64,000 nt of DNA, from sequence record MW394391.1. One strand, given 5' to 3'. This document shows positions 1,037 through 46,787 of this stretch, in pieces. The notes beneath the pieces are model-generated. The model worked only from the letters and a program-made list of their open reading frames with translations. It was not told the origin of the DNA and made no database searches. Made by a program: the position numbers and the translations under genes. The DNA is from Klebsiella phage vB_KpM_FBKp24. Numbering within the stretch: position 1 is the stretch's first letter; the number at the start of each line of letters is the position of its first letter.

Positions 1037-1074
1037 AGTTTCACCTTTAGTTTTCGTGGGCTTTACCGGCCCGG

Positions 1075-1764: not shown

Positions 1765-1816
1765 TACATTCCCCTCTTCGTAATAAATATAACTTATATT
1801 AAATCGGATTTAACCG

Positions 1817-1823
1817 TTACATA
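1817..1823 (-). promoter_or_regulatory. TATGTAA motif after terminator 1841-1868
   Basis: Minus strand ...uuuuauuuuaucuuguuacucTATGTAAcgg, about 57 nt upstream of the ATG at 1764. Confidence 0.3.
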
Positions 1824-1840
1824 GAGTAACAAGATAAAAT

Positions 1841-1868
1841 AAAAAGAGGAGCAAATGCTCCTCTTTTT
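1841..1868 (-). terminator. intrinsic terminator AAAAAGAGGAGC-aaat-GCTCCTCTTTTT
   Basis: 12-bp stem immediately after the stop of 1870..2616, followed on the minus strand by UUUUUAUUUUAUCUU. Confidence 0.7.
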
Positions 1869-1869
1869 A

Positions 1870-2616: not shown

Positions 2617-2619
2617 GGC

Positions 2620-3348: not shown

Positions 3349-3349
3349 G

Positions 3350-4075: not shown

Positions 4076-4086
4076 TGTTCGACTCC

Positions 4087-8800: not shown

Positions 8801-10369
8801 CGGAATTTGCCGATACTCATCTAACGATATTTCCTCGTTAAAAGGAGAAGGGATCGTCTTGTAACTTTCCGCCAATCTGAGATGGCGTTTATATTCACCT
8901 TGGGTTATTAAGCCTTTGGAAAGAAGCGTCTCAGCCTGGATCCGTATCCCAGAAATTAGCGGGTCTTCTACCTTATCTTCCAGAGGTGGCTCTATAACCG
9001 TCTCAGCGTCAACGTCAGGGGCTGAAACTAAACGCAAGGCCCTAGGGGCTTCAGTTGTCTCGATCTCTTCTGTCAGACTTTTAAATGCGTCTACGATCTG
9101 AGTACGGATTCCTGGTTGCCCCGCGTTAATTTTATCCCGAATTTCTTTTACCGTAACGGTTTTCTTCGGAATACCAGTCGGTGTTTCGTCTTCCGCGACA
9201 ACCGTCTCAATTACAACGTCGTCTTCAACCGTCTCGCTAACTTCCAGAATCTCGCTTTCACCCGTGTTCTCATCCGGGATGGTTTCTTCGATTGTGGCCT
9301 GTTCCTGAACACCCGTCAGTAATTTCAACGCCGTGAGATGCTGGAGCATTAACCGAGAGACCTGGGCGTATGCATCACCCTTCGGGTTTTCGTTGGATTT
9401 TGTCCAACGACTTAGACGCCCGAGGTTAAGTACTGTAAATTTCCCCATCCGTAAAAAGACAAAGTTGATCTTGTCGTAGTGGTCAGAGGGAATAATATTT
9501 AACAGGGATTCTTCCCGCTTCTCGGAAAGCCATTGCCAAAGATCTTGAATGAAAAGTGAGTCGTCATTCTGGAAATAACCCAAACGAATACGATTCATCT
9601 CTTCCAACGCTAACCCGGAATGCTCTATAAAGCTGGAGTCCGTTTCAAACCCTAACGCTGATTCGTCGAAAGATTCTCTCGCTACATCACCTGGGAACTC
9701 GGATGAAATCCCTGGGAAATGCAGATCGAAAACGTCGCTGTATGTTTGTACCAGTGATTTATTACGGTGTTGATTCTGATACGCGTTTAACAGCGGTACC
9801 CCGCCATCTTCTACGGAGATATTCAGCTGCATCTTAGTAGGCATCTCATCAGGCACATTGACGAGAATGAATTGATGGCGGTCAGAATGTTCTGCGTAGT
9901 ATTTCGCCTGAGTATAAAGCGTAGAGAGCAAATTCTGGAAACGCCAGAATCTCGCCATCGGCAACGGAAGATAACGCCATTGCATCGGGATCAACGAGTA
10001 GTTTGCAAGGATCGCAGTATTCCTGTCATCCAGAGCGCGATTGATATCAGTTACTCGACGAAAACCACGGCGCTTTTGTATCCAAGTCCGTTTAAGGTTG
10101 GAAACATTAAACGCACCTTTACGGCGAGGGGAACCAATAAAGCTGGTCATCTCCGTAATGTTGTCCGCATAAGGGCGGGTACGTTCCCGTTGGAACGCGA
10201 AGAATGTTTCATCTGGACCGAGGTCAATCGCGTTAGTCGGGAGGTAATGAAGAATACTATTTTTTGGTAACGCGAAGTTTTCAATGTTAAAAGCACGGGG
10301 GTTCGATAATGTCGTACGATTACGAATTCCGTACGACATGTAAAATTGTTGGTACTGAATGTTGCTCAT
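5891..10369 (-). CDS. multisubunit RNA polymerase beta-like subunit, N-terminal fragment through the catalytic region (1492 aa)
   Basis: A C-terminal segment HQRGMGDGDKLVVGNQKKSVVSGV (encoded around 6066-6135) resembles the universally conserved RpoB motif GDKMAGRHGNKGVIS and is followed by a PxDIxL-like segment. The protein ends about 95 aa after this motif, so the beta C-terminal modules must be encoded elsewhere, as in the split RNAPs of phiKZ-like phages. It sits in an operon with the beta' fragment. Confidence 0.5.
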   Translation of the reverse strand: MSNIQYQQFYMSYGIRNRTTLSNPRAFNIENFALPKNSILHYLPTNAIDLGPDETFFAFQRERTRPYADNITEMTSFIGSPRRKGAFNVSNLKRTWIQKRRGFRRVTDINRALDDRNTAILANYSLIPMQWRYLPLPMARFWRFQNLLSTLYTQAKYYAEHSDRHQFILVNVPDEMPTKMQLNISVEDGGVPLLNAYQNQHRNKSLVQTYSDVFDLHFPGISSEFPGDVARESFDESALGFETDSSFIEHSGLALEEMNRIRLGYFQNDDSLFIQDLWQWLSEKREESLLNIIPSDHYDKINFVFLRMGKFTVLNLGRLSRWTKSNENPKGDAYAQVSRLMLQHLTALKLLTGVQEQATIEETIPDENTGESEILEVSETVEDDVVIETVVAEDETPTGIPKKTVTVKEIRDKINAGQPGIRTQIVDAFKSLTEEIETTEAPRALRLVSAPDVDAETVIEPPLEDKVEDPLISGIRIQAETLLSKGLITQGEYKRHLRLAESYKTIPSPFNEEISLDEYRQIPKEIVWDFKPKEVVDIAHVKDKSMLKSTLIDYDRKYVEEVMQKDVINLVLGFQKAGYAITDFKVERQVDALNDLYDYTVKISPVKGAPSTVRFQLPVVDKNGKYKVGGIKYFMRKLRFDKPIRKISPSTVALSTYYGKLFVDRSDKRRHDYGEWLKDAMNVAALSNPPLMAEIVYGNSFTDSQPVPRTYSAIAKEVISFDAAGMNFFFDYPNIGKNFPDWNGQGNIPVGKRGRSTVTMDREGYLQVGPERLGHISKLFGADPVNRPNELVTISILGQEFPLAIVLMYLEGFTQFVDKMEIKPQRRTKGARVQPDQNTFEIVFADEIWRIPRITHPDVLIYSSLQLWKNALKNYSVAELDNQDNYNALLSDMQLSGRYLYEFSNLKALFIDPIAEENLEAMNEPTEFIPLLKKAAFYLATDEYPSDLSSQGSLFKGYERMAGAVYRTFAEAVRRQSSSNLSSRAQLDFPPFEILSAIQKDPSVSLVEDSNPIQNLKEKENLTYSGTGGRGKRSMTRRTRAFHPSDIGIRSESSVDNGDVGINCYLSANPNLTSLRGTARTETDLSKEKGFSNVLSTSALVSPFSTYDDPKRVNFIGIQSSHKRYSVGDDLGYIRTGYELMMAQRTDDLFSSVAKGPGTITEKTKGHVVIKYDDPELGEDQIELGRKFGIVTGHTEPHEVVCDLEVGAKVDKDHVVAYHPGFFARDWREPTQVAFKNGVTTNIALVENNNTFEDASLISERLSQKMTTLVTHTRVLMVNFNQAIRNLVSEGQHVDNEDTLAFIEDEVSATFDYFDESTMETLKRLGNPAPRAKHVGKVEKIEVFYFGEKEDMSDSVRKIADKYDSIRAKNAKLLGTETALTGQVFTPSRIDGMPLEIDMMAIRIYITHQRGMGDGDKLVVGNQKKSVVSGVYKGICRTTTPVLPGGQPWDIDLQFSYRAINARIVNSALLLGMGNILIENIQQEMLKAYDSE

Positions 10370-10385
10370 TACAGTGAAACTCCTG

Positions 10386-12017
10386 TTATGCGTCGCCAGT
10401 GATATTACGTAAAACTAACTGTACGTTGTCAACGTCAGCGCTCTTAGAGAGTGTGCCACGTGAAGATAGATACCACTCTTTGCGACTCTTTAATCTATTA
10501 AATTCCGCCAGGGAATCAGAAGCGTAAATGGCTGTGAAGGTACAACGGTCACCGTCGAAGTCGGCCCCTAAGGGATTGAGGTAACTCACTCCTATCCCCA
10601 TCGAGTTAACGTATTCTACTGACTTAGTTTGGTCAGGGAATTCAAAGCAAATATAGTCTTCGCCCAATCTTCGCCAGTCGTGACCAAGTTCAGGTTTCAC
10701 GCTAGAAACAATGGTCGGTTTACAGTAAATATTTGCTATGAAGGTTGAACCTTGCCCTGTGACAGGGTAACGAGTTACAACACCCGCCAGTTTTCCCCAT
10801 TCCCGATATCCCGATAAGTAATAAAGGGAGGTCATGTTGATAGGGCTCACGAATCGCTTATCGAAACCCGCCGGGAGTTCATTAATGTCGGAGAAGAATC
10901 GGAAACCTTCCTCGCCCCAATAAAGAAGACCGAGATAAAAGCCATCTACCATGATCGGCTTACTGCGGAACGCAGGGGTTTTGTACCGGGTTATTTGTGC
11001 GTCAAGACCGTCACGGGTCGTCCAGCGTTCAATCGCCTCCGGTGAGGGTTGAACATATTCTGCTCGCAGCGTTTTTGGGTTAGTCAGTCGGATTTCATCT
11101 TCGCTATTACCAGAGAAGACTTCACCTAACCAGCCCGACCGTAAGAAGTAACGTGTTTTCGGCAACACCGCTTTGATCGTCTGGTAAAGACCTAACTGAA
11201 CATGGTTGACCCCAGGCGTATTCGTTTCACCGATTCGACCCCCGGTAATTTTCATCGGTGAAATGACGTTCGCCGTACCGTTGAGTATTTTACGAGAAGC
11301 CCATTTGGCTGCAGCGAAACCCTTTTTACCTTTAATCATGTTAAAGATACTTTCAAAGATTTCGTTGAACTGACGCTGGAGCTGTAAACGACTGTTGTTG
11401 ATTACGGGGTCTTCGGAAGGTTCTCTTCCCGTGTCAAGACTACTTGAAATAGAAATGATTGAGCGATAATATTTATTAATTTCATCTTCACTGGTTCTAC
11501 CGGTGGGCTCAACCATTAAATCCCGTAGCCCGGCTGGCATGACAAGTACTTTATCGACGAGGGCGTTTTCTTTGTTTTTGTTAATCAGTTTAACTCGGAG
11601 ATTACGAATTTCCGAATCCCCTTCCTCGATCTTCAGTTCAGGGAAGTGACGAACAAAGAAAGCGAAACCCGTATCGCCCTCCATTTCGTTGCTGGGTTCG
11701 AAATCAAAGGTTTCTGTGTTAAAGACCGCGTAACGTCTACCCTCTAAAATATCCAGGTATAAGCGTTTTAAAGAACCTAGGCGCTTATAAATGAGGGGGT
11801 GGAAAATTCGCGTGTTAAGATTAATGTAACTGAATCGACCGTCTCGTTCGGGAGAACCGAGGGGACCAAAAGTTTCAATAGAAAATAACCCATCCTTATG
11901 GAAGTTCCGCGTGCCCGTTTCAAATATTTCTGTTGTAACAGTCGGGCGCATACTCCGAATCAATTGCGGGGTTAGTTCCATGAGGAAGATATTGAAAGGA
12001 ATATCATTGGTACGCAT
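10386..12017 (-). CDS. multisubunit RNA polymerase beta'-like subunit, N-terminal fragment (543 aa)
   Basis: Contains NPLGADFDGDRCTF, encoded at 10545-10566, which is the NADFDGD catalytic Asp triad of RpoC. The N-terminal ETFGPLGSPERDGRFSY matches the RpoC N-terminal ERDGLF...FGP segment. The ORF stops about 35 aa after the triad, so this is a split subunit. Confidence 0.75.
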   Translation of the reverse strand: MRTNDIPFNIFLMELTPQLIRSMRPTVTTEIFETGTRNFHKDGLFSIETFGPLGSPERDGRFSYINLNTRIFHPLIYKRLGSLKRLYLDILEGRRYAVFNTETFDFEPSNEMEGDTGFAFFVRHFPELKIEEGDSEIRNLRVKLINKNKENALVDKVLVMPAGLRDLMVEPTGRTSEDEINKYYRSIISISSSLDTGREPSEDPVINNSRLQLQRQFNEIFESIFNMIKGKKGFAAAKWASRKILNGTANVISPMKITGGRIGETNTPGVNHVQLGLYQTIKAVLPKTRYFLRSGWLGEVFSGNSEDEIRLTNPKTLRAEYVQPSPEAIERWTTRDGLDAQITRYKTPAFRSKPIMVDGFYLGLLYWGEEGFRFFSDINELPAGFDKRFVSPINMTSLYYLSGYREWGKLAGVVTRYPVTGQGSTFIANIYCKPTIVSSVKPELGHDWRRLGEDYICFEFPDQTKSVEYVNSMGIGVSYLNPLGADFDGDRCTFTAIYASDSLAEFNRLKSRKEWYLSSRGTLSKSADVDNVQLVLRNITGDA

Positions 12018-12063: not shown

Positions 12064-15000
12064 ATGGCCAAAAGAGAAAAAATAGATCTTGATCGTTTTG
12101 ACGATTTTGATCTCGAAGATAACTGGGGTATGGACAGAGAACCTACTCCGGCGCGCGACGGTAGCGGGAAGCGCGAAGCGGTTAAAAAAGCAGGGAAGAC
12201 CGTATTACGGGAAATGGGGAAAACTACCTTCACCACGCAGATGGCGAAAACCATTCTGAAAGAGGCGATGCCGCGTTCCTTTACGACAACCCTGGATAAT
12301 ATCGACCGCGGTCTCATCGACACCCGTGCACTCTATGCTGAGGTCCGGCGTGATGCCTCCCCGATGGTCAGGGAGATGAAGGCATTAGGTAGAACGGTCA
12401 ACCGTTTAGTGCCTACACCATACCAAAAGAAAATTGACGCGTACCTCAGTCGTCAGAGTGCCACTGATAACTCTGGGAAACAACTCGCAGCACTGAATAT
12501 CGAAGATGCGGCGGTTCTACAATCCCTGGCACAAGTTTTCAACCAGGAAGAAAGTAAAACTAAACAAGAGAGTACGGACGAGCTCACTGAGAAATTAACG
12601 GATCAGAAATACAAAGTGAAGCTGGGTACCGCTATTGCGAGTATTCAGAATTTACTGGCGAAGCAAACTGCTTATCAATTTGGTGCACAACGTGCATTTC
12701 AAAAGAAAAGTATGGAGCTTCAAATAAGACAGCTGATGGTCTCACGGGCTCATTTGGATGTCGCTCAAAAATCCGCGATTGAAACGTCGAATCTGTTAAG
12801 AAGCATCGTGGAAAACTCTGCGTTACCGGACGTCGTTAAACAGCACCGTTCGGAAGAATTTATGCGCATGGGTCGCGAAAAGATCTTTGGACGTATTCAA
12901 TCTTCAATGTACGACTGGACGAGTAATTATCGTCAACAGTTTAAAGACCGAGTTAAACAAGTAGTTGGGGACAGAGTACAGAAGTTCCAGACGGGCATGG
13001 GGTTAGCGAATAGCACCCTCGAACAACTGGAAATGCAACGTGAACTTTTAGCCTCAATGGGCGTAACCCCAGAAGAGTTCTTAGCCGGTGCGGCCGGTAA
13101 CTGGGGCGCACTGCAAATCGGTAAACGCATCGGTCGTAGTATTAATCGCCGAGTGCCGGCCCTCCGTCGTTTGGACGGGACGTTTCAGGGTGCTAACTAC
13201 CTTTTTAATAATAAAGAACGTTTAGCAGCAGATTGGGGTAATTCAGGATACCGTTACGGAAAATGGTATAACCCGATTGAAAACTTCCTGAAAGACACAC
13301 TACGCAGTAGTTACAAAGATGGTGGTGTTGTTCGTGCAGGTGGGTTAGGGAACGGCGATAAAATCTCGTCTGTAGATGAGCGTAAACTCGGTTACATGGA
13401 GGAGATGTCAGGTTACCTGTCCCGAATCTTACATAGTATCGATGTCCTAAGAACCGGAGATAGTAAGGCGCCACGTACGGTTTTCAATCGTCAGAAAGGG
13501 ATCTTTACCACCTTCGATGAATCCGTCGCGAGTACCCGGGAAGCCCTATTAAAAGACACGGATATCAATGCCCAGCGAGAAAACGTTGAGCGGTTAATTA
13601 CCTCCATCGACGGCAATAACCGACTGTCGCCACAGGCACGAGGAAAAATCTCTGATCACTTAATGGCACGTGCCAGAACCTCAAAAGCCTTTAACCCCGG
13701 TCAGATTGCCAACGAAAAAATCAACGGTCTTTCCCGTGACGAGATGCGTTTATGGCAAGGGTTATTGGCGAAACGTTACGGTCTCAAGCTTAACGAAAAA
13801 AGCGAATGGACGCTCAACCCGTTCTCTTCTTCTAACGTTAACCTGAACATCGATGCAGGACAGTACAATTACGCTTCGAACCAGACACAAGGTATTTTTA
13901 ATCGAGCACATGGGCTGGCGCAAACCGGAAATCTGGAAGAGCTAATCTCTGAAGGAGCCGTTATCTTTAAAAACGGGAACTGGGAACTGAACCCGGAGTA
14001 TTACGCTAACCGGGTCGGTGGGAAACGAAGCGGGAGTAATAACCCGCCTTCAAACCCGGGAGATATGGGACCACCAAGACCGGGCGATCGTCCGCCGGTT
14101 CCGCCGACACCTGGTGGTAACCCGCCAGACCTGCGGCGTTTTGGACAAGACTGGACCAACCCCAATTCCGTTAACTTCAACCTCGGCGGATCTCAATTCG
14201 CGAGTGTCCTGACGGCACAAACTGATCGCATTCTGGAACGAATGGAAAAAAGCCAACTGTTCTGGGACGAACAGATGGCACGTATCGAAAGTCAATTGGC
14301 TGGGTTAGGGTCAGCAGGGACTGGCGGCGGCGATGGTTCTGGTCAACCTCCTGGCCCAGAACCCCGTCGTCGGTTCAGTCGTGGTTGGTTAGGACGAGGC
14401 TTACGTAGTGGGTTACGCGGTGCAGGTCGCGGTGTAAAAGGACTATGGGACTTAAGTGGTCTACCATTTAAAGCCGCCGGTGAAGCATTCCGCAGGATCC
14501 GTCGACCCGCCTTTAATGCGGCGATGACCATTGGTACGTTTGGACTTAACAAAGTCTTTGGTTACGGGATGCAAGCATTCGAGCGAGCCCAAGATGGGTA
14601 CATTACCACAGTTAACGGTCTGAAGAAGGTTTTAACAAAGGAAGGGTTGGAATCGGGTCAGTATGTTGATCAGGCCACCGGGAAAATTATCAAAAAACTC
14701 TCCGATGTCAGAGGAGCGGTTTGGGACGTTGTTAATAATACCCAAGTCATCTCCGATGATGAAGCAAGGGGCGGATTATTCAATGCTGCCGGTACCCGAG
14801 TTAAAACTGCATTTAGTAAGACAGTGGGCGCGATTGGTTCCCTGATCAACGGGCGGTTTACACCCTATAACCTCATGAAAGGTGCGTTGGGTCTCGGCGG
14901 GAAAGGGCTGGGTAGTTTATTAACCCGGTTACCTGACATCTACGTCAAAGGGGAAAGTAAACCACGTCTTTACGCAAGTAAATTAGCGAATGGGGAATAC

Positions 15001-18000
15001 TTCTCCATGCGGACGGGTAAACGAATTTCTAAGCTCTCCGACATCGATGGTGATGTGGGTACTTTAGATCCCCGCACGCGAACAATGACGCCTGTAATGA
15101 CCGCTGAAGACGCTGCCAAAGGTCTTGTTGATCGCAATGGGCAGGCTATCCGTACCGGCCTCGGAAGACTGGTAGGAATGTTAGGTAGCGGTTTAAGGGG
15201 TGCATTTAACTTTGCAGCGTCACCGTTTAAACTGTTAAACGCTATGGGTAGAACCGCTGCTAATATCGCAACCTCCGGTATCCGAACAGTAGGGAATATT
15301 TTCACCGGTGGGGCGTTTGGTGGGCGCAGTATGGGTACGGGTCCTAATACGTGGCTGAAACGCATCTACCGATTACTTGTTAATCAATTCACGGGTAAGA
15401 ATCCATTAGACGGTTTAGAAGAGACCGAGGATGGTTTAGGTGGAATCAAAAACCGTCTAACAGGCGGCTTCGAGCGATTGAAGAACCGTGCTGGTAGTTG
15501 GTGGAATCGTTTACAGAAGAAAAAACCGGATGAGGCAAAGCCGGAACACGCCGAAAGGGCAGCGAAGGAATCAGGCGGTTGGGGAAAACTGATCTGGGCG
15601 GCCATCACTGGTGTGGGAGCGATTGTTAGTAAAGTTGCTTCTGGTTTTGGAAGTTTCTGGAAATGGATAAAAGAATTACCACGTTGGATTGGTGCCAGTA
15701 AAGCCGTGGGGGCGGCAGGCGATTTAGCAGGAGATGCCTTAGACGGTGCGGGAAGAAGAGGAGGCGGATTGTTACGCCGCTCCGGTGGCGTCCTGAAAAA
15801 AGTGGGTAAAGGTGCGTTAGGAGTAGCCGGGTTCTTAGGGCGGGGATTATTCAGTGGGGCCGGAATGTTGGCTCGCGGTGCGGCCGTGGCAGCTGGTTCG
15901 TTACTTTCAGCGCCAGTGTTAATTGGGGCGGCTGTCGCGGTGGGGGTTGGGTATCTGATTTATAAAGGGTACCAAGCGTACAAAAACAAACTCACCTTGC
16001 TCCGTAAATACCGAGTAGCGCAATACGGCGTTAACCCCAAAGACGACGATAAAGCAGGTAAGGTTTTAGCACTGGAAGAAGCGGTACTGAAGTCCAGTCA
16101 AATCGACGGACAAGGGAAACTGAAAATCGGTTCATTACCTTTCCAAGATCTTGTCACGGCGTTCGGTATAGAGATCACCGACCAACGTGCTGTACAGCGT
16201 TGGGTACGTTGGTACCAAATGCGTTTTGCCCCGGTGTTCTCCCGTAACGTAGAGATTCTTCATCAAATGGATCCGAAAGCAAAAATCACTGACGCCGAAT
16301 TTCTGAAAGATTCTCAGCGCGGTGATTTTGCAAGGAGCACCTTTATCGCTTCCGGCGGTGCGCAATCTCCTTACCTGGTTTCCGACTCACCGTTCCCGGA
16401 AATCTCTTCGGTCACCGGCGACCGGTTCGTTGCGGGCTGGCGAGACCAGGTGATTGCGGAATACGCCAAGGCAGAGAAAGCGGCAGTAGCGAGTGGTGAG
16501 AAGAAAGTGCTGGCAGTAGGGGAAGCGAAGAAACCGCGCGGACTGGATGCGCTAAATCAAAAAGCACAACAGATGCAAGCGGCTAACGCAAACCGAAACA
16601 TTAACCCAAGCACCGACCTCTACTATTCTCCTGGCGATACCCGTAAAGGTATGACATCTCTAACGGGCGACAGTCGTAAAGATGAGCTGATCGAGATCGG
16701 GAACCGTATCGATGACCTTACTTCGATACGGATGAAACTGTACGGTCTGCCTGAGTTGGTGAAAGGTGACGTCAATACGTTGGTGGCGCTGGAAGCCGAG
16801 GCGATTAAGCAGGTTCGTTATGGGGATAAAGGCGTCGCCTATTGGACCGGAAATACCGAGCAATTCTTCGCTAACTGGAATGGGCAATTCGCGGTTAACG
16901 TGAATAACCCAGACGAGAAAACGGGGTGGTTGTTCTGGTTTAATAAACGTTTCCTTCCGGTCTTCCTGAACTTCTGCTCGGAAAGTAACTACCTGTCCCC
17001 GAACACGTCACCGCTTCAAGCATGGAAGAAATTGAATGCCAGCGATTTACTTAAAATCGCCAATTTCATGAACGGTGCGACAACCGAGGTCAACGGAAAC
17101 CGGGTGTCGGTCTGGACGATCAAAGCTTCTCCTTGGCCTAATCGGATTTCCAATCTCGACAGTAGCGTCATTCAGTCTAACCTGGACGCACTGCGTCTCG
17201 AGAGTAAGAAAGAAATTTACCAAGAGAAAGTAAAGACCGAGACCGAGATCAGTCAAATGACTTTTGCCGGAAAACCGCTACGTGCCACAGTTACCGGGAA
17301 TAAGATTGCCGATCTGATGACGGACGTTTCGGCGATTACGGCGGCAGGTAAAGGACGGGCGACTGGTAAAAACGGTGTAGGGATATATGGTCAGCGACTG
17401 GGCTCTATGGGAACCTCCTATGAGCGCGCGGAATCAGGCAGCAGCTTCACGGATACTAACTTGTTACATTCCGGGGAAGGAACAGGTGGTTCAATTAACG
17501 ACATCCCTGAACCGAAAGGGGACGGGTGGGAAAACGTTAAAGATTCGCTTATAGCGGTCGCGAAAATGGTGGGGGTTGACCCCGGCTCATTGGCGGCGAT
17601 GATTGCGCAAGAATCTGGGTTTGAGCTCAGAGCCAAGAACGGTGGTTCTACGGCAGCGGGTCTGGGTCAGTTCATTGATAGTACCTGGAAAGAGATGCTC
17701 CCGGTACTCGTGAAGAAATACGGCGTGAACCCTAATACGTCTCAGTACGACCCGAGAGCTTCCCTATTGGCAACAGCAGAGTACATGAAGAAAAACGCGG
17801 CGATTATCGGGGATATCGGAAGACCGTTAACGACCACCGATATTTACATGGCACATTTCTTAGGTCCAGGAGGGGCGAAGAACGTTTTAAGAGTGCCGAG
17901 TAATACGCCGATTGCCACCGCGATGGGTGATCAGTATGCGTCCGCGGCCAAAGCAAACAAAGAGATCTTTAACGGTGTGAGAACAACGGGTGATCTCGTT

Positions 18001-18669
18001 GCGAGCTTGGGTAGGTACCTTTCCAACAACGGCGGGCGGTACATTCAGGAAGCCAACGCAATGGCGAATAAGGCCGGACCTGCTGTGCCTAACAGTACAG
18101 ACTCTGGCGCAGTGACGAATGTCACGCCTTCTACTACTACCCCAACGTCAGACAATGGAACGGCTGAAACACCGGCAGTAGTAGCGAGCGCTAAAAGTGT
18201 GGCAAATAACCCTGCTAAGGGGGAGTTGCCTACAGGGAATACTACTAGCGCAGCCGTGGTTAACCGTGGGACTGATACTTTAACACCTGCGGTTACAAGG
18301 GCAACAGACAAGCGTGACGAAACTGCTATTGTCCAACAGTCTGTCCAACGCGACAAAGCAGCAGCGGCGAGTCGTGCGGCCGTGGCAGCGGCGCGTCAGC
18401 AAACTGCGCAGGCGACCAGCGAGACTAATGGTTGGGCAAATGTGTTGAACGATCAACTGACCGTCCAGAAATCGATGGACAGTACGTTGATTGAAATCAA
18501 AGAGCTGATTCAAAAAGGCGGTCTACTGGGCGGGAACGGGGGTAGTGACAATTCCCCGAAAGCCAGTCCAAATACAGACGAGTTAAAAGGGAAAAGTTTG
18601 AACGTCAACGGAAACGGTCCTCGTCCGTATGAACCGTTTGATACATCGCTCTCATCGCAGTATCGTTAA
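12064..18669 (+). CDS. giant virion-associated protein (2201 aa) with C-terminal lytic transglycosylase (SLT) domain, phiKZ gp181-like
   Basis: Residues around 1840-1960 (DNA about 17560-17900) read AMIAQESGFELRAKNGGSTAAGLGQFIDSTWKEM...YMAHFLGPGGA, which are SLT/lysozyme-like family-1 motifs (catalytic E-S, GLGQF, AHFLG). The N-terminal 1800 aa are Gly/Arg-rich low-complexity and coiled-coil, typical of tape-measure or ejection proteins. It is adjacent to RNAP subunit genes. Confidence 0.8.
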   Translation: MAKREKIDLDRFDDFDLEDNWGMDREPTPARDGSGKREAVKKAGKTVLREMGKTTFTTQMAKTILKEAMPRSFTTTLDNIDRGLIDTRALYAEVRRDASPMVREMKALGRTVNRLVPTPYQKKIDAYLSRQSATDNSGKQLAALNIEDAAVLQSLAQVFNQEESKTKQESTDELTEKLTDQKYKVKLGTAIASIQNLLAKQTAYQFGAQRAFQKKSMELQIRQLMVSRAHLDVAQKSAIETSNLLRSIVENSALPDVVKQHRSEEFMRMGREKIFGRIQSSMYDWTSNYRQQFKDRVKQVVGDRVQKFQTGMGLANSTLEQLEMQRELLASMGVTPEEFLAGAAGNWGALQIGKRIGRSINRRVPALRRLDGTFQGANYLFNNKERLAADWGNSGYRYGKWYNPIENFLKDTLRSSYKDGGVVRAGGLGNGDKISSVDERKLGYMEEMSGYLSRILHSIDVLRTGDSKAPRTVFNRQKGIFTTFDESVASTREALLKDTDINAQRENVERLITSIDGNNRLSPQARGKISDHLMARARTSKAFNPGQIANEKINGLSRDEMRLWQGLLAKRYGLKLNEKSEWTLNPFSSSNVNLNIDAGQYNYASNQTQGIFNRAHGLAQTGNLEELISEGAVIFKNGNWELNPEYYANRVGGKRSGSNNPPSNPGDMGPPRPGDRPPVPPTPGGNPPDLRRFGQDWTNPNSVNFNLGGSQFASVLTAQTDRILERMEKSQLFWDEQMARIESQLAGLGSAGTGGGDGSGQPPGPEPRRRFSRGWLGRGLRSGLRGAGRGVKGLWDLSGLPFKAAGEAFRRIRRPAFNAAMTIGTFGLNKVFGYGMQAFERAQDGYITTVNGLKKVLTKEGLESGQYVDQATGKIIKKLSDVRGAVWDVVNNTQVISDDEARGGLFNAAGTRVKTAFSKTVGAIGSLINGRFTPYNLMKGALGLGGKGLGSLLTRLPDIYVKGESKPRLYASKLANGEYFSMRTGKRISKLSDIDGDVGTLDPRTRTMTPVMTAEDAAKGLVDRNGQAIRTGLGRLVGMLGSGLRGAFNFAASPFKLLNAMGRTAANIATSGIRTVGNIFTGGAFGGRSMGTGPNTWLKRIYRLLVNQFTGKNPLDGLEETEDGLGGIKNRLTGGFERLKNRAGSWWNRLQKKKPDEAKPEHAERAAKESGGWGKLIWAAITGVGAIVSKVASGFGSFWKWIKELPRWIGASKAVGAAGDLAGDALDGAGRRGGGLLRRSGGVLKKVGKGALGVAGFLGRGLFSGAGMLARGAAVAAGSLLSAPVLIGAAVAVGVGYLIYKGYQAYKNKLTLLRKYRVAQYGVNPKDDDKAGKVLALEEAVLKSSQIDGQGKLKIGSLPFQDLVTAFGIEITDQRAVQRWVRWYQMRFAPVFSRNVEILHQMDPKAKITDAEFLKDSQRGDFARSTFIASGGAQSPYLVSDSPFPEISSVTGDRFVAGWRDQVIAEYAKAEKAAVASGEKKVLAVGEAKKPRGLDALNQKAQQMQAANANRNINPSTDLYYSPGDTRKGMTSLTGDSRKDELIEIGNRIDDLTSIRMKLYGLPELVKGDVNTLVALEAEAIKQVRYGDKGVAYWTGNTEQFFANWNGQFAVNVNNPDEKTGWLFWFNKRFLPVFLNFCSESNYLSPNTSPLQAWKKLNASDLLKIANFMNGATTEVNGNRVSVWTIKASPWPNRISNLDSSVIQSNLDALRLESKKEIYQEKVKTETEISQMTFAGKPLRATVTGNKIADLMTDVSAITAAGKGRATGKNGVGIYGQRLGSMGTSYERAESGSSFTDTNLLHSGEGTGGSINDIPEPKGDGWENVKDSLIAVAKMVGVDPGSLAAMIAQESGFELRAKNGGSTAAGLGQFIDSTWKEMLPVLVKKYGVNPNTSQYDPRASLLATAEYMKKNAAIIGDIGRPLTTTDIYMAHFLGPGGAKNVLRVPSNTPIATAMGDQYASAAKANKEIFNGVRTTGDLVASLGRYLSNNGGRYIQEANAMANKAGPAVPNSTDSGAVTNVTPSTTTPTSDNGTAETPAVVASAKSVANNPAKGELPTGNTTSAAVVNRGTDTLTPAVTRATDKRDETAIVQQSVQRDKAAAASRAAVAAARQQTAQATSETNGWANVLNDQLTVQKSMDSTLIEIKELIQKGGLLGGNGGSDNSPKASPNTDELKGKSLNVNGNGPRPYEPFDTSLSSQYR

Positions 18670-41364: not shown

Positions 41365-43608
41365 TTATACTGCAGTCGGTGGATTGATAACGGCGAACCC
41401 TGAACTTGAGACAGGAACAAAACTCTCCCCACTACCCAAGTTACAGATCAGACGCCCAACTCTAAGTTCGGCTGGCAGACCACTTAAATCTACCACGGTG
41501 TCTACCGCCCAAGCCGACGCACTGTACTTGTAGCTTTGATGACTTATGACGTCAACAATACTGTATGTCAACCCACCGAAACTCGTTGGTGTAAACACCA
41601 ACGCATCCTTACCATTGACAATGAAGCCTGCCATACTCGCGAAGGTCGTTGGGGTAAAGGTCACGCTACTCACGTTGACCGTGACGGTCGTTGATGCAAC
41701 GGTCACTGACATTGTGGTCCCGGAAAGGGTGCAAGTAACCTGAACAGAGGCCCCTGTTAGAGCGGCCAAAGCAACGTCGCTACCCGTTGTCCAGACACCC
41801 GCAATATAAGTACCTAAATACACGGCACCGTTCTTAAAAAAGATCCCCGCGTAATTTTCATTACCGTTGCTGTCTTGGTAATAACCGAAGATAAAGCCCG
41901 GGATAGATGTACCGGTGGCTACGTCGACATAAGCGCGTTGCGAGTAGCTTGCTGGAGCTGGCGTGATTAACGCACTTACTTGACTGGCGCTATGCAGTGG
42001 GGAGGTCACGGTACGGAGGGTTGAGCTCCATTCTTTATTAACACCCGTCGAGGACCTGGTACTACTGGCCACCAACCCGCCTGCTGGAAAACCGGAAATC
42101 AGTTTGGCGATATATGAGGGTTGGCAGGAGTAGTTGCGAACCAACACATTGCTCGTCAGCGCAGTAGTGACCCCCGCCGGGTCGACATAAGTCTGAGTTG
42201 CTGTTCCGGCCTGGTTTTCTGCGGTCGTTGCAAATCCTGCATTAACTACATTCCCAAGACCCACATCCACTGCGGTTAGGTTGGTACCTTGTTCAATTGC
42301 CTGATCGACGTACATTTTCGCCGAATTGGTCCACCAGTAGGCGATGCCTGCCGGAGTAGTGAACAGATTCGTTGCGGTACCCAGCAAGGTTTGATCGTTG
42401 GTGGCGGTACCGTAGTTACTCACGTTTCCAAGACCGACTTGCGTAGCAGTGACCTGGTGCGGGTTGTTGTAATCCAGTAAGTGCGCAGCTAAAGGTTGGT
42501 CTGTCGAGTTCGTCAACATCAAGTTGGCTAAGTACGGCGTTAAGAGCGTCGTTTTACTGACGCCTGCCAGGGCCTCTTCTTCTGTCGCCGTTGCATAGTT
42601 AGGGACATTCCCTAAACCGACCTGCGTCTTTGTGACACCGTGAGGGTTATTGGTATTAGCGGTATGGAATTCCATAATACCCGGCACTAACGCGTTGGCT
42701 AAAATACGCCCGCCAGACGGAGTCAGTAAGAGGTTATCTGCCACCCCTGCCGAAGATTCAAGTGAGTTTGCTGTGCGGTAGTTAGGAACTAAATCTAACC
42801 CGACTTGCGCTTTAGTAACGCCGTGAGGGTTAGACTGGTCGTCTTCGTGTTCTTGCAGCATCGGCTGGAAAATAGCCTGGAACTGCTGCGAGGTACGAAG
42901 AGACGTCATGTAATAGGTATTGTCTGTCCCGCCTTCTGCTTGTTCTTTCGAAGCCGGTACTAAGTTACCGAGATCATCGATCCCTAAATCGGCCAGCGTA
43001 ATATGGTGCGGGTTGTTGTGGTCGGCAATGTGCTCCAGCAGGGATTGCATTGCTTTATTGAATCCGGCAGTTTGCGAATCGGACAGCGAATAGATGGCCG
43101 AGATAACTTCGCTGAAACCTGTCATGTCATCTGCGTCATGACGATGCGCGATCGGCGGGAATTCGGTCGGTAAATTGACTACAGCACCCCACTGCAATGA
43201 ACGAGGATCTTGAGCCTTATTTGCCATTAACTGGAGAATACTGTTCTCATCCAGACAGAATTCACCGCCTAATGTGTGGTAGTCAATTTCAATATTTGCG
43301 CTGAGTGATTTGTCATTAAAGACAATAGCGCCATAAACAGGTAATTGACTCCCGCTGACAATAATTTGGTCAAAACGAAAACCGAAGAAATAATCCACAT
43401 CGGGTCGTAAAGTTACCCCAGTGGTCGTGTTGCGGCAGACAAAACCGCGGCGAAAGAACGGGGCGTAACGCGGGACAATAAAGTTAAAGTCCGTTCCGTT
43501 AGCCGCCGTTATCGTATGAGCCTCACTTGAGATCTGATTACTGCTATTCTCTTGGTAAGGATCGAAGTCATATGGGAATACAATTTCGTCGCTCATGATT
43601 ATCCTCAA
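41365..43608 (-). CDS. tail fibre protein (747 aa) with the same repeat modules
   Basis: At least five NPHxVT(K/A)xQVGLGNV(P/S)NY modules (NPHHITLADLGIDDLGNL, SNPHGVTKAQVGLDLVPNYRTA, NNPHGVTKTQVGLGNVPNYATA, NNPHQVTATQVGLGNVSNYGTA and others). The C-terminal ~250 aa are beta-rich. Confidence 0.7.
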   Translation of the reverse strand: MRIIMSDEIVFPYDFDPYQENSSNQISSEAHTITAANGTDFNFIVPRYAPFFRRGFVCRNTTTGVTLRPDVDYFFGFRFDQIIVSGSQLPVYGAIVFNDKSLSANIEIDYHTLGGEFCLDENSILQLMANKAQDPRSLQWGAVVNLPTEFPPIAHRHDADDMTGFSEVISAIYSLSDSQTAGFNKAMQSLLEHIADHNNPHHITLADLGIDDLGNLVPASKEQAEGGTDNTYYMTSLRTSQQFQAIFQPMLQEHEDDQSNPHGVTKAQVGLDLVPNYRTANSLESSAGVADNLLLTPSGGRILANALVPGIMEFHTANTNNPHGVTKTQVGLGNVPNYATATEEEALAGVSKTTLLTPYLANLMLTNSTDQPLAAHLLDYNNPHQVTATQVGLGNVSNYGTATNDQTLLGTATNLFTTPAGIAYWWTNSAKMYVDQAIEQGTNLTAVDVGLGNVVNAGFATTAENQAGTATQTYVDPAGVTTALTSNVLVRNYSCQPSYIAKLISGFPAGGLVASSTRSSTGVNKEWSSTLRTVTSPLHSASQVSALITPAPASYSQRAYVDVATGTSIPGFIFGYYQDSNGNENYAGIFFKNGAVYLGTYIAGVWTTGSDVALAALTGASVQVTCTLSGTTMSVTVASTTVTVNVSSVTFTPTTFASMAGFIVNGKDALVFTPTSFGGLTYSIVDVISHQSYKYSASAWAVDTVVDLSGLPAELRVGRLICNLGSGESFVPVSSSGFAVINPPTAV

Positions 43609-43661
43609 TGTACCATCGGCCGATGGATCAACATACCAATACTCATCAAAAAGGACCAGAC

Positions 43662-44906
43662 ATGTATCAGCTTATACAGGCACAGACGCGTACAAAAGGA
43701 AGTTTTAATGATTGGGTAAGAACCGACATTGGCGAACAACGGCTTTTATCTATTTTTACTCTGTACAGCAATGTTCTCGTTTACCTTTACGACGTGACCA
43801 ATGAGAAGAATGGGTGGTTAGATCTTTATTCTCTTCCGGTGTCCGTACGCGACTCCGTAGCCACACTCAACCAGTATCTTTCTCTGGCCAGTGGTCTGAC
43901 CCTCGTTGAGGATGACCCGCGCGGTGAACGCGGTGAACGCTACGTACGTTTCCTCAACGCGATGGCCTATAAGTTCACCTTCCGAGGGACCAATGCCAAC
44001 TTCAGTACCGATGAAACATTACTTCCCGACCAACGCGTAGACCTTCTCTTACAACGAGATGGAATCACCGATTACACCACAATCGTCAATAAGACATTAT
44101 GGACAGTGAACGGGTTATGTTTTCGGGCATGGCCTATCGATGGCCTCGGTATCACTCTGAACCACGCTGGGAAGTTTGCGTCTAAATTTAATGATCTTCG
44201 CGTCGGGATTTTGGATTTCAGTACAATCGGCGCAGTGAGCACTTACCCTATTACGGAAAGTATGATTCAGGGCGGGGGGACACAACTCCCGTTATCGCGA
44301 GGGTTCTTTTTGCGGTCCCCCGAAGCACTGACCGGAAAGTCAGTAGGATTAGTCATTGCGGGTAAGTTGTATTTATTGGACAAAGAGGTATCTATCACTG
44401 GAGAAACTCGCATCCAGGTCCATATGCAAAACATCAACCTGATTAATCATTTCTTTGAAACGCACAATTATCTGGACTATTCGGATATTCCATTATCCGA
44501 AGACATTAATGAACCAGAACAGGTCGTCGCCAATCAGTTTTTAACGGACGCGGTTATCAAGGCGTTTCTGACCTCCGTTTACTCGTACCTGATTATTATT
44601 GACAGCGCGAATCTCGAAAAAGAACACCTGTCGTTAAAACGGACAAAAATTGACGGGACGTACCTTTCTCCGGGTTCAGTACTCCCTGACCTCCCTGTAC
44701 AAATAGGGAACGGTTATTTAGCTGAATACACGCTTTGGGAGCAGGACGGCTTCTATGCGCTACGATTACCCCATTCCACCATCAACAACTGGTTTTACGA
44801 AACCATTCCCATGAACGAACGACAGTTAGTCCAAAATCAACGCTACGGCTATCACCCGGTTACTCCGTCTGAGGCTCGGTTTCTACTCATTAAAAAGGTT
44901 GCTTAA
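43662..44906 (+). CDS. hypothetical protein (414 aa)
   Basis: The track ORF starts at 43608, where it would overlap the divergent fibre gene. The ATG at 43662 has an AAAAGGA RBS and is the likely start. It lies directly upstream of the spanin pair. Confidence 0.5.
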   Translation: MYQLIQAQTRTKGSFNDWVRTDIGEQRLLSIFTLYSNVLVYLYDVTNEKNGWLDLYSLPVSVRDSVATLNQYLSLASGLTLVEDDPRGERGERYVRFLNAMAYKFTFRGTNANFSTDETLLPDQRVDLLLQRDGITDYTTIVNKTLWTVNGLCFRAWPIDGLGITLNHAGKFASKFNDLRVGILDFSTIGAVSTYPITESMIQGGGTQLPLSRGFFLRSPEALTGKSVGLVIAGKLYLLDKEVSITGETRIQVHMQNINLINHFFETHNYLDYSDIPLSEDINEPEQVVANQFLTDAVIKAFLTSVYSYLIIIDSANLEKEHLSLKRTKIDGTYLSPGSVLPDLPVQIGNGYLAEYTLWEQDGFYALRLPHSTINNWFYETIPMNERQLVQNQRYGYHPVTPSEARFLLIKKVA

Positions 44907-44908
44907 CC

Positions 44909-45508
44909 ATGTGGACAACGCTTGCCGGTAATAGGTACTTTCGCTGCTTAATCGTGATCCTTTTGATTATGTTACTCGTCTTCGGTATCTATCAGGCCGG
45001 GAAGTACGTACAAAAGAAAATTAACGATACCGTTGCACAAGTCACCAACCAGATTACAAAGAATGTTCAAGAGAGCCTTCAAAAATCTCTCAATGAACAA
45101 ATGGGCGGTTTGCAGAATCAAATCGACAACAATTTCAGTTCTATAAACGGTAAATTCGATGAACAGCAACAAAGTATTAATGACACTAAGCTTAAGCTTA
45201 ATAATATTGGCGATGTCTGGTTGCGCGTCGAAAGAGTACGTACCGACGCAGAACACGTCAGTAACGCTAAAGGTACCGGAAGTAAAAGTACCGGAAGTTC
45301 GGGAGGAAGTGATGGAACCTATTACGCCAAACTTCCAGATTCGAATGTGCAATTTCTTAAAGGGGAAGCCTTTAGAGCAGATCAATGCGCCGTGCGACTC
45401 GGGGCAGCCCAACAAGTAATTGTGCAGTACAAAGGAGCGTTCGAGAAGTATCAAAGTCTGGTCGCCACTTATTTGGCGGCAGCACAAATCGGCGAACAAA
45501 CGAAATAG
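44909..45508 (+). CDS. i-spanin-like protein (Rz-like; N-terminal transmembrane helix plus periplasmic coiled coil, 199 aa)
   Basis: Transmembrane segment YFRCLIVILLIMLLVFGIY, then a Q/N-rich coiled coil, a Gly/Ser linker (GTGSKSTGSSGGSDG) and a C-terminal domain with one Cys. The linker region contains an embedded +1-frame lipoprotein gene. Confidence 0.55.
   Translation: MWTTLAGNRYFRCLIVILLIMLLVFGIYQAGKYVQKKINDTVAQVTNQITKNVQESLQKSLNEQMGGLQNQIDNNFSSINGKFDEQQQSINDTKLKLNNIGDVWLRVERVRTDAEHVSNAKGTGSKSTGSSGGSDGTYYAKLPDSNVQFLKGEAFRADQCAVRLGAAQQVIVQYKGAFEKYQSLVATYLAAAQIGEQTK
45159..45419 (+). CDS. o-spanin-like outer-membrane lipoprotein (Rz1-like, 86 aa), embedded in the +1 frame of the i-spanin gene
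   Basis: MNSNKVLMTLSLSLIILAMSGC|ASKE has a positive n-region, a hydrophobic core and a lipobox (AMSG-C, encoded at 45210-45233). The mature part is Pro-rich (VPEVKVPEVREEVMEPITP) with two further Cys. It lies wholly within 44909-45508, in frame +1. Confidence 0.5.
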   Translation: MNSNKVLMTLSLSLIILAMSGCASKEYVPTQNTSVTLKVPEVKVPEVREEVMEPITPNFQIRMCNFLKGKPLEQINAPCDSGQPNK

Positions 45509-45514
45509 CAAACA

Positions 45515-45544
45515 CAGACAGAGAGGCGTTTGCCTCTCTGTCTG
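45515..45544. terminator. bidirectional terminator CAGACAGAGAGGC-gttt-GCCTCTCTGTCTG
   Basis: 13-bp stem followed by CTTTGTTTTC, between the spanin genes and the convergent membrane-protein gene. Confidence 0.7.
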
Positions 45545-45552
45545 CTTTGTTT

Positions 45553-46170
45553 TCATCGACGGTTTCGCAATGCGTTGACTACATCAGCGATTACACTACT
45601 GTTAATTTTGTCACCGACCACCGCAGACAGGATATCGCGGCGTTCCCGGTTGATGATCCCCATGTAATACCAGGTTACCATCATGGTGGGAAGGATAATA
45701 ATCCCCGCAAGAGTGGCGGAAGGGAGTTCCTTTTTGTCGATACAGACTACCGCTACAACAGATGTGAATACCAGGATAGTAAACGCCAACACCATGGCAA
45801 ACATGGCGCCTATCAGTCGACGTGAACGTATCTCGTATTTATCCGGTTTTGCAATTTCATTAATGACTTCGGGATGAATAACCGGGGTAGGTTGCGGAGG
45901 CGTATCGACCTCTGGTTCGGCAACATCTGGTTCAGGGTGCTCTATTTCCGAAGCATCAACCGGGGCGATTTCCAATTGCAGCCAAATTGCTTTGTTATTG
46001 TCATCCGGGTGCGCAGCGATATAATCGCGTAGATCCTTTACCGTTGAGCCGGCAGGGGGAATAGCCGGTGCAAAGAGGTGTGCCCGCATTGACAACGAAT
46101 TACCTTCACCGTCAACATAATCACTTAACTGAGTTTCATCCGGTAGTACAAGAAGTTCGCTTAATAACAT
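45553..46170 (-). CDS. membrane protein (205 aa): acidic N-terminal domain and two C-terminal transmembrane helices
   Basis: Transmembrane segments GAMFAMVLAFTILVFTSVVAVVCI and LAGIIILPTMMVTWYYMGII. Last gene of the ruvC-tmk operon. Confidence 0.5.
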   Translation of the reverse strand: MLLSELLVLPDETQLSDYVDGEGNSLSMRAHLFAPAIPPAGSTVKDLRDYIAAHPDDNNKAIWLQLEIAPVDASEIEHPEPDVAEPEVDTPPQPTPVIHPEVINEIAKPDKYEIRSRRLIGAMFAMVLAFTILVFTSVVAVVCIDKKELPSATLAGIIILPTMMVTWYYMGIINRERRDILSAVVGDKINSSVIADVVNALRNRR

Positions 46171-46787
46171 CAGTACACCTCGTCGTAACTCGCCATCAAT
46201 TGAAGGAAGACCTCGTTTAAAGGGGCTTTTGCATTAATCGTAAATACACGAGCATTTGCTTCTGGGGCGATTTGACTAATGGCCGACAAGTAACGTCTAC
46301 GATAAAAATCAAATTGGTCGATCAGTTCTTCTTCGATAGTGTCTTTCTTTCGATTACCAAGACGCTTGACGTGAGTGTCGTAATCAATGTCGAGATAAAA
46401 GATTGTTGGTTTATGGTCAAAGATCCCGAGACCTTCGTGGAGATTAAACAACCAATCCCAATCTTCGTCGGGGCTGTATGCGAAAGTAGAAAGCCACGAA
46501 CGATCAAGAATAACTGTGTGTCCACCTTCTAATGCGAAATTGACTTTGGCGTCAAACAATTCTTTCCGGGCCGCCACAAAGAGCAATGCTCGAGCAGCGG
46601 GTGAGGCGGGTCGTTTATTGGATGTGACAATTTCACGAATGGCCTCTGCGGGTACTGTGCTACCCGGTTCACGGAAAACAACAACAGATTCTCCACGTTC
46701 TTTTAATGCTTGTTGTAATAAAGCCACTGCTTCTGTTTTGCCGGCGCCATCTAAACCTTCTACAATCAGTAATTTTGTTCTCGACAT
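46170..46787 (-). CDS. tmk: thymidylate (dTMP) kinase
   Basis: LIVEGLDGAGKTE P-loop (compare E. coli IVIEGLEGAGKTT), FREPGST (FTREPGGT), LLFVAARKE (LMFYAAR) and LDRSWLSTFAYS (GDRHDLSTQAYQ). Confidence 0.85.
   Translation of the reverse strand: MSRTKLLIVEGLDGAGKTEAVALLQQALKERGESVVVFREPGSTVPAEAIREIVTSNKRPASPAARALLFVAARKELFDAKVNFALEGGHTVILDRSWLSTFAYSPDEDWDWLFNLHEGLGIFDHKPTIFYLDIDYDTHVKRLGNRKKDTIEEELIDQFDFYRRRYLSAISQIAPEANARVFTINAKAPLNEVFLQLMASYDEVY

Follow-up and report, generated by a model that had tools for sequence, protein, structure and literature searches.

Spanins are proposed to work through membrane fusion. In embedded spanin pairs such as lambda Rz/Rz1, the gene for the outer-membrane component (o-spanin) lies within the gene for the inner-membrane component (i-spanin), typically starting at 0.4-0.5 and ending at 0.9-1 of the length (L) of the latter (Kongari et al. 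2018, PMC6139136). The lysis genes gp141/141.1/142/143/144 of the jumbo phage phiKZ have been characterized (Manohar et al. 2026, PMC12894885), and its spanins, gp141/141.1, complement lambda RzamRz1am (PMC12894885). For Serratia phage Moabite, the 2019 genome announcement reported a spanin pair and stated that a holin could not be identified (PMC6639629); in phage T4, the spanin genes lie apart from those of the holin and endolysin (PMC6139136). Here we analyze a 64,000-nucleotide stretch of Klebsiella phage vB_KpM_FBKp24 (sequence record MW394391.1; hereafter the window), in which two nested open reading frames (ORFs) at 44909-45508 very probably encode, to judge from their sequences, a two-component spanin with the embedded lambda Rz/Rz1 gene arrangement in a chimallivirus jumbo phage of Klebsiella. 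We take this phage to be phiKp24 (307 kb; Chimalliviridae, Maaswegvirus).

A preliminary description of this DNA had already proposed a spanin pair in the style of lambda Rz/Rz1. That proposal is supported by conservation in 10/10 lineages, by sequence constraint limited to the overlap of the two genes, by matches to PHROG profiles and by the annotation of Moabite.

A lipoprotein gene nested within a membrane-protein gene

The outer ORF, the putative i-spanin gene (44909-45508, plus strand; taken from the list of ORFs), starts at an ATG and encodes 199 amino acids. Its product contains a single hydrophobic segment, at residues 13-31, with a Kyte-Doolittle value of 2.57, and no other hydropathy window scored at least 1.6. 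Hydropathy and a helix in an AlphaFold2 (AF2) model place the predicted signal-anchor transmembrane domain (TMD) at residues ~10-31 (YFRCLIVILLIMLLVFGIYQAG), encoded at 44936-45001 on the plus strand. From the N to the C terminus of the outer protein, this TMD is followed by a long helix rich in Q and N, the short strand VWLRV, a linker of Gly and Ser, the strand YYAK and finally a C-terminal helix that carries Cys160, with AF2 assigning helix to residues 9-98, strand to 104-107, coil to 108-137, strand to 138-141 and helix to 144-196. Q and N together account for 32% of residues 33-100, and G, S and T for 53% of the linker (residues 108-137). Cys160 is the one periplasmic Cys of the protein and is invariant in an alignment of 12 family sequences. 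In the AF2 model, which was built with 11 homologues as input and is of low confidence (predicted local distance difference test, pLDDT, of 54), the secondary structure can still be read clearly, and the periplasmic domain is mostly alpha-helical with a flexible linker. We infer that the outer protein is a type II (N-in/C-out) inner-membrane protein with a single TMD.

The putative o-spanin gene (45159-45419, plus strand; same list) begins at an ATG offset by 250 nt from the outer start, and therefore occupies the +1 frame, wholly inside the outer ORF. It encodes an 86-aa precursor whose N terminus, MNSNKVLMTLSLSLIILAMSGC|ASKE, passes a PROSITE PS00013-type lipoprotein rule: there is a K within the first 7 residues, an uncharged h-region and the lipobox AMSGC, with the Cys at position 22. 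The predicted signal peptidase II signal and lipobox (MNSNKVLMTLSLSLIILAMSG-C) are encoded at 45159-45224 on the plus strand, the last codon (45222-45224) being that of the predicted lipid-modified Cys22. The residue at +2 is Ala, not Asp, which implies sorting to the outer membrane. The mature protein of 65 aa contains 8 Pro and two further Cys, C64 and C79.

Most of what the preliminary description had said about the two proteins is borne out. It had named the outer ORF and its N-terminal membrane anchor (here an ATG ORF of 199 aa, hydrophobic at residues 13-31), the Q/N-rich stretch, the Gly/Ser linker and a C-terminal Cys (C160), and it had recognized in the +1 ORF a lipobox followed by a short, Pro-rich mature part with extra Cys. 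Its statement that the embedded gene sits exactly over the linker lacks precision: the overlap takes in outer codons 84-170, from the end of helix 1 through the short strand, the linker (108-137) and the second strand into helix 2, of which it covers the first half.

Running from 0.42 L to 0.85 L, the embedded ORF fits the positional rule for embedded spanins (Kongari et al. 2018). The features by which two-component spanins are recognized (Summer 2007; Kongari 2018) are present in the window, namely an N-terminal TMD, a helical domain with a linker, a lipobox without Asp at +2, a nested gene and periplasmic Cys.

The embedded gene is conserved and dual-coded

We compared the pair across 10 lineages in which identity of the outer protein ranges from 92% down to 24%, Erwinia phage PhiEaH1 included; an IMG/VR search for related loci returned two phages only, both already known. 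Conservation of the embedded +1 ORF and its lipobox in related jumbo phages, which the preliminary description had put forward as a check on its proposal, extends to all 10 lineages, the lipobox reading [AV]MSGC or, in PhiEaH1, LMLGC. The embedded ORF of every lineage runs from a start at 0.39-0.46 L to an end at 0.80-0.85 L of the outer gene. The window and all 9 relatives satisfy the PS00013-type rule, with A, G, E, K or T at +2 and never D, and the two further Cys of the o-spanin are present in 9 of the 10 lineages (PhiEaH1 has none). Relative to phage KpLz-2_45, the embedded protein is 85% identical in amino acids, as against 68% for the outer protein.

Constraint on synonymous sites of the outer frame follows the limits of the embedded gene, beyond which these sites are saturated. 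Between the window and KpLz-2_45, outer-frame third positions are identical at 28/83 sites upstream of the overlap, 74/87 sites inside and 7/29-30 sites downstream (Fisher p = 7e-15). Measured against eight lineages, this identity is 0.62-0.85 inside the overlap but only 0.24-0.52 in the flanks; across nine lineages, residues that are identical also have the identical codon in 81% of cases in the overlap, compared to 40-45% outside. A sliding profile bounds the synonymous constraint at ~45180-45395, ending where the o-spanin ORFs of the relatives stop, and shows a local peak above the lipobox (45206-45224). The most constrained shared DNA, at 45309-45395 on the plus strand (third-position identity 0.83-1.00 in alignments of nine lineages), encodes in one frame the o-spanin C-terminal motif VMEPITPNFQIRMCNFLKGKPLEQINAPC and in the other the i-spanin segment GTYYAKLPDSNVQFLKGEAFRADQC, with Cys160 at 45386-45388. 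Because the overlap DNA is constrained in this way, megablast against Serratia phages matched only 45268-45453 of the window. These results show that the embedded gene is conserved, under selection and dual-coded, and they make the pair a very clean example of dual-coding constraint.

An embedded +1 ORF could also be a chance open frame that is never translated, leaving the outer protein to act alone. The weak Shine-Dalgarno sequence (ggt/acgg) ahead of the internal ATG would fit this, as would the fact that the embedded product is uncalled in every annotation of vB_KpM_FBKp24, and a lipobox can arise by chance: of the 1633 candidate starts in the six frames of the window, 5 pass the PS00013-type rule, and the embedded ORF is the sole ATG among them with a truly hydrophobic core. 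A chance frame does not explain, however, why ORF, start position and lipobox are kept in 10/10 lineages, why outer-frame synonymous sites are constrained in the overlap only, with boundaries that are those of the embedded ORF, or why the embedded protein is better conserved than the outer one. The behavior of an antisense ATG ORF of 194 aa (44972-45556, minus strand), which covers almost the whole i-spanin gene, is the opposite; it is interrupted in most relatives, with a longest open stretch of 49-124 aa in 7/9. We therefore rejected the antisense ORF as a by-product and not a gene, and it serves as a control for the embedded ORF. That the embedded frame goes untranslated seems to us extremely improbable.

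Two minor features of the overlap were observed. The o-spanin of the window ends in a 6-aa extension, SGQPNK (45399-45419), that is absent from its relatives, which stop after APC[DGAIV]; since synonymous constraint is already down at ~45398, this extension is probably dispensable. Within the most constrained part, tttcttaaagggg at 45353-45365 encodes the peptide FLKG in both frames at a one-base offset (QFLKGEA in the i-spanin, NFLKGKP in the o-spanin).

The orthologous pair of Moabite and existing annotation

In Moabite, a syntenic nested pair is annotated as i-spanin gp274 (QDB71172) and o-spanin gp273 (QDB71173). Moabite (Moabitevirus, Chimalliviridae) shares with the window not only the orthologous pair but its flanks, which run gp131-like gene, gp130-like gene, spanins, terminator, homologue of the convergent gene orf205 (described below), tmk and RuvC. 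The +1 embedding, the AMSGC lipobox, the C-terminal o-spanin motif and the invariant i-spanin Cys are likewise common to both. The two differ in that identity is only ~45% per protein and that the 6-aa o-spanin extension belongs to the window; both pairs are predictions.

In vB_KpM_FBKp24 itself, the outer protein is 100% identical to QQV92139/YP_010298996, a 'putative spanin'. The exact embedded product is absent from a collection of 15 billion proteins, so the o-spanin lacks an annotation in this phage. Nor is it called in Klebsiella phage vB_KpM_Centimanus, which is 98.8% identical over the region, in KpLz-2_45, MJ359, Totoro, Kodama and 2050HW, or in five metagenomic contigs. In a survey of spanins, gene callers had missed 196 of 528 o-spanins (PMC6139136). 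The pair is thus real and was correctly read by the preliminary description, but it is ordinary: the outer gene already carried the name 'putative spanin', and a nested orthologue had already been published for Moabite. Its value lies mainly in annotation, as the o-spanin is missing from phiKp24, Centimanus, the Siatvirus phages and most Moabitevirus genomes, and phiKp24 is a Klebsiella jumbo phage whose structure has been studied well and which is of interest for therapy.

Family links to lambda Rz/Rz1

Searches with PHROG profiles connect both proteins, through weak matches, to the lambda spanins. The i-spanin matches phrog_2466, 'Rz-like spanin' (with phrog_13, one of the PHROGs of the lambda Rz family), at E 4e-6, with residues 14-173 aligned to profile positions 11-165 of 172; all 12 i-spanin family members match this profile (best 1.2e-7), on which lambda Rz scores 2.4e-24. 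The o-spanin matches phrog_3198, lambda Rz1's own family, at 1.2e-3 for the window and 2e-3 to 8e-3 for its relatives, lambda Rz1 itself scoring 1.5e-29, and in alignment the o-spanin family and lambda Rz1 have the motif [IV]M[EQ]P..P[ND][FW]Q in common. Beyond these profile matches and the Rz1-like motif, the lambda pair resembles that of the window in the +1 frame of the o-spanin, the order TMD, helix, linker, helix in the i-spanin, the short Pro-rich lipoprotein and the periplasmic Cys in both proteins. The two pairs differ in length (153/60 aa in lambda, 199/86 aa in the window) and in that the Pfam families of the lambda proteins, PF03245/PF06085, are unmatched by the window. They also differ in setting: the window lacks a holin-endolysin-spanin cassette, its spanins following tail genes and its endolysin being unlinked.

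Several observations weigh against a spanin assignment of lambda type. No member of the 12-sequence family matches Pfam PF03245 (Rz, Phage_lysis) at E <= 1, and at the same threshold PF06085 (Rz1) is matched by lambda Rz1 alone and by none of the o-spanin family; a Pfam scan of all family members yielded coiled-coil noise only (EzrA, Baculo_PEP_C). Alignment of the i-spanin family profile to the single lambda Rz sequence with hhalign gave no signal, a single-sequence template being too weak, and PHROG profiles were therefore used. The o-spanin PHROG match is weak (1e-3) and takes in the compositionally biased signal peptide. For the outer protein, the periplasmic topology is presumed, the positive-inside rule is not decisive, and confidence in the AF2 model is low (pLDDT 54). 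To these points are added the weak Shine-Dalgarno sequence of the embedded gene and the distance of the endolysin; in Centimanus, a gp144-like transglycosylase gene (167907-168587) lies ~111 kb from the spanins.

The negative Pfam searches and the negative hhalign comparison with the single lambda Rz sequence would be expected if the pair were a functional spanin that arose as a convergent analogue of lambda Rz/Rz1 and not as its diverged homologue, and spanins are indeed extremely diverse, with many singleton families (PMC6139136). Common descent, on the other hand, is favored by the nearly full-length alignment of the i-spanin to phrog_2466, the profile that also recognizes lambda Rz, and by the o-spanin relatives, all of which match lambda Rz1's PHROG and share the motif M[EQ]P..P[ND][FW]Q. 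Gene arrangement and frame (+1) are also the same as in lambda. We consider convergence unlikely, though it deserves serious consideration, and the pair of the window a probable distant homologue of the lambda Rz/Rz1 lineage on the strength of the profile matches, with membership in that lineage not proven.

When PDB sequences were searched with the profile of the i-spanin, no relative of solved structure emerged; the only matches were to coiled coils, were sub-threshold (E 0.006-0.8; apolipoprotein, influenza HA2, coronavirus S2) and were rejected as evidence, being treated as compositional. For residues ~58-110 of the i-spanin (45080-45240), many sub-threshold PDB matches were to coiled coils from class I fusion proteins of viruses, namely influenza HA2 and coronavirus S2 (E 0.03-0.8); these matches are not significant and probably compositional.

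Genomic context of the spanin genes

Directly upstream of the pair lies a gene for a phiKZ gp130-like virion protein (43608-44906, plus strand; phrog_3337, 4e-97), whose counterpart in Moabite is annotated as phiKZ130-like. Its TAA stop is 2 nt before the i-spanin ATG (44904-44911), and in Moabite the two genes overlap by 4 nt; this junction points to probable co-transcription and translational coupling with the late structural genes. Between the spanin genes and the convergent gene downstream, a predicted bidirectional intrinsic terminator (45515-45544), found by its stem and T-runs and by RNA folding, combines a G+C-rich stem of 13-14 bp with T-runs on both strands (-31 kcal/mol, z = -7.2). 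Moabite, too, has a terminator annotated at this position. Given the tight junction with the gp130-like gene and the strong terminator, late co-expression of the spanins with the tail genes is likely. Sigma-70 promoter scans of the locus were set aside as uninformative, since the phage has RNA polymerases of its own.

A candidate holin beside the spanins

The gene convergent with the spanins, orf205 (45553-46170, minus strand; 205 aa, from the list of ORFs), is 'hypothetical' in all records, and we propose it as a candidate holin from its TMD hydropathy and hhalign results. Its holin-like features are an N-terminal soluble domain of ~70 aa (residues 1-68, 45967-46170, minus strand, delimited by hhalign to the gp142 family), an acidic Pro-rich linker, two hydrophobic helices identified by hydropathy (TMD1 at 45739-45795 and TMD2 at 45652-45708, both minus strand), the invariant sequence WYYMGIINxERRDILSAVxGD and a basic tail. 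A collection of 1.84 billion proteins contains 24 representatives of this small family, some members of which consist of the membrane part only. All nine Klebsiella/Serratia-type lineages have an orf205 homologue adjoining the spanins. In PhiEaH1, where we examined the spanin/tmk-orf205 region at 550-4822 of the locus, the homologue follows tmk as always and lies 3 kb from the spanins, with four genes, gp196-gp199, between them, one of which encodes a putative virion protein. PhiEaH1 gp196, which stands beside the spanin, was rejected as a counterpart; it is unrelated to orf205, the true homologue being 3 kb further on. In the window, the stop codon of tmk shares one base with the start codon of orf205 (TGATG, 46168-46172); the tight junctions at tmk/orf205 and at gp130-like/i-spanin suggest translational coupling.

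When family was aligned to family with hhalign, orf205 residues 1-68 matched, in the same register, residues 1-69 of the family of gp142, the experimentally proven holin of phiKZ (Prob 90.6-90.8%, E 1.2e-6), with a score of 44.7 compared to at most 16.2 in reversed and 60 column-shuffled controls. The match is significant only with family profiles on both sides, a 9-sequence orf205 alignment against the single gp142 sequence giving Prob 10%. A homologue search with gp142 returned a single near-identical protein, and gp142 relatives were accordingly taken from phage records. Foldseek with a model of orf205 against BFVD recovered the protein's own family, including PhiEaH1, and did not recover gp142. 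The profile phrog_14084 (131 positions), weakly matched by orf205 relatives, was rejected as the gp142 family, gp142 belonging to phrog_14484.

The shared N-terminal domain is, in gp142, the cytoplasmic part that binds the regulator gp143 (PMC12894885). The membrane parts differ: gp142, a class IIIb holin, has a single TMD in N-in/C-out orientation and a short periplasmic tail (PMC12894885), whereas orf205 and its relatives have two hydrophobic helices which, together with the conserved basic tail, predict an N-in/C-in topology. No gp143 homologue was detected in the window, and tblastn with gp143 found Pseudomonas phages only, which implies that the clade has no homologue of the regulator. 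Because its membrane part is unlike gp142, with two TMDs versus one, and because no gp143 is detectable, orf205 is a holin candidate only. The preliminary description had seen no holin nearby; with the two TMDs of orf205 and an N-terminal domain homologous to gp142, that statement is probably wrong. The link between orf205 and gp142 is the more useful outcome of this analysis, since it provides a testable holin candidate for enterobacterial nucleus-forming phages (Maaswegvirus, Siatvirus, Moabitevirus, Iapetusvirus and Goslar). It also suggests that the cytoplasmic regulatory domain of the holin is older and more widespread than either the membrane part or the regulator gp143.

A distant endolysin and the case for lysis

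In the window, the only similarity to a peptidoglycan hydrolase, a transglycosylase, is found at 17524-17970, inside the ORF for a 2201-aa virion protein (12064-18669), and no soluble endolysin gene is present in the 64 kb; on both points the preliminary description was right. It had also thought the absence of an endolysin notable. As T4 separates its spanins from the holin and endolysin, such an absence is not unusual. The T4 spanin genes PseT.3/PseT.2 resemble those of the window in being unlinked from the holin and endolysin (PMC6139136), but they are separate genes where those of the window are nested; no sequence similarity was seen, and no search aimed at it was made. The Centimanus transglycosylase begins with MPNYFWALVLCVVSVFATSATASVS, a hydrophobic segment like a signal peptide or a signal-anchor-release (SAR) sequence, and the Moabite endolysin (10205-10873 of the examined locus) is similar. 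Within 3 kb of the transglycosylase gene of the clade we found no gene for a membrane protein.

The position of the pair also raises the question of whether it acts in lysis at all. A real complex of an inner-membrane protein and an outer-membrane lipoprotein might serve another envelope role, such as superinfection exclusion, receptor masking or assembly of the virion or tail at the membrane. Such a role would suit genes that come straight after phiKZ gp130/gp131-like tail genes and probably share their transcripts, that are ~111 kb from the endolysin and that leave the Pfam Rz/Rz1 models unmatched. Each component, however, independently matches a spanin PHROG that also contains its lambda counterpart, Rz or Rz1; the nesting of a type II membrane protein and an outer-membrane lipoprotein is itself the diagnostic signature of spanins (PMC6139136); the neighboring gene is related to the phiKZ holin; and no other spanin candidate is known for the clade (PMC6639629). 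The T4 spanins are likewise unlinked from their endolysin. We therefore judge a non-lytic role very unlikely and retain the reading of the pair as a two-component spanin.

How such a spanin would act can be outlined by analogy with lambda Rz/Rz1 and phiKZ gp141/141.1 (PMC6139136, PMC12894885). The pair would probably be co-transcribed with the late tail genes, the o-spanin being translated from the internal +1 ATG on the same mRNA as the i-spanin. The i-spanin would be anchored in the inner membrane by its N-terminal helix and expose a periplasmic domain of helix, Gly/Ser linker and helix; the o-spanin would be exported, lipid-modified at Cys22 via signal peptidase II and delivered to the inner leaflet of the outer membrane. 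The two proteins would bind each other through their C-terminal regions, both encoded by the most constrained DNA (45309-45395), to form a complex that spans the periplasm, with homotypic disulfides probably formed through C160 of the i-spanin and through C64 and C79 of the o-spanin. Once the endolysin had cleared the peptidoglycan mesh, the complexes would collapse and the inner and outer membranes fuse, completing lysis. The partners in this scheme would be the convergent orf205 as holin and the signal-peptide-bearing transglycosylase encoded ~111 kb away.

Comparison with the phiKZ lysis locus

The lysis genes of phiKZ-like phages had been called poorly defined in the preliminary description; with the characterization of gp141-144 in 2026 (PMC12894885), this no longer holds. 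phiKZ belongs to the same virus family as the phage of the window and resembles it in the neighborhood of gp139/gp140 (RuvC) homologues and in the N-terminal domain that its holin shares with orf205. Gene order agrees with the link between orf205 and gp142. The order in phiKZ is gp139-gp140(RuvC)-141-141.1-142-143-144; in the window, the minus strand carries a gp139-like gene, RuvC, tmk and orf205, followed by the spanins in the opposite orientation. The phiKZ spanin genes gp141/gp141.1 overlap and belong to phrog_7584 / phrog_24791, whereas those of the window are embedded and belong to other families. A tblastn search of the window with gp141 and gp141.1 found nothing better than E 0.1, and hhalign of the window's i-spanin family against gp141 gave no signal (Prob 1.5%). 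By these comparisons, the spanins of the window are unrelated to phiKZ's own overlapped spanins. The loci differ further in that phiKZ keeps its holin, the regulator gp143 and a soluble endolysin, gp144, together, whereas the clade of the window has no detectable gp143 and a distant endolysin with a signal peptide.

This pattern suggests that within the Chimalliviridae a lambda-type embedded spanin replaced a phiKZ-type overlapped one at a conserved lysis locus. If so, one spanin family can take the place of another at such a locus among members of the same virus family. A wider proposal, which we find quite possible while leaning slightly against it, is that the spanins and orf205 make up a rearranged chimallivirus lysis cassette. 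In such a cassette, orf205 would be the holin that could not be identified in Moabite-like phages. It would combine a gp142-type cytoplasmic regulatory domain with a membrane module of another kind (two TMDs and the invariant WYYMGIINxERRDILSAV tail), with no detectable gp143 partner, and would work with a Sec-exported transglycosylase (signal-peptide or SAR-type) encoded ~111 kb away; at the same locus, beside the gp139/gp140 homologues, embedded spanins of lambda type would have taken the place of overlapped ones of phiKZ type, a non-orthologous replacement within one virus family.

Escherichia coli phage Goslar also has a member of the orf205 family, gp085 (189 aa; 4177-4746 of the examined locus). 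At 3.5 kb upstream of it lies gp088 (198-701 of that locus), a gene for a 167-aa lipoprotein, MKKLCAIILGMLMVLSLGGC|A, with no obvious i-spanin beside it; the spanin arrangement of Goslar may be different again.

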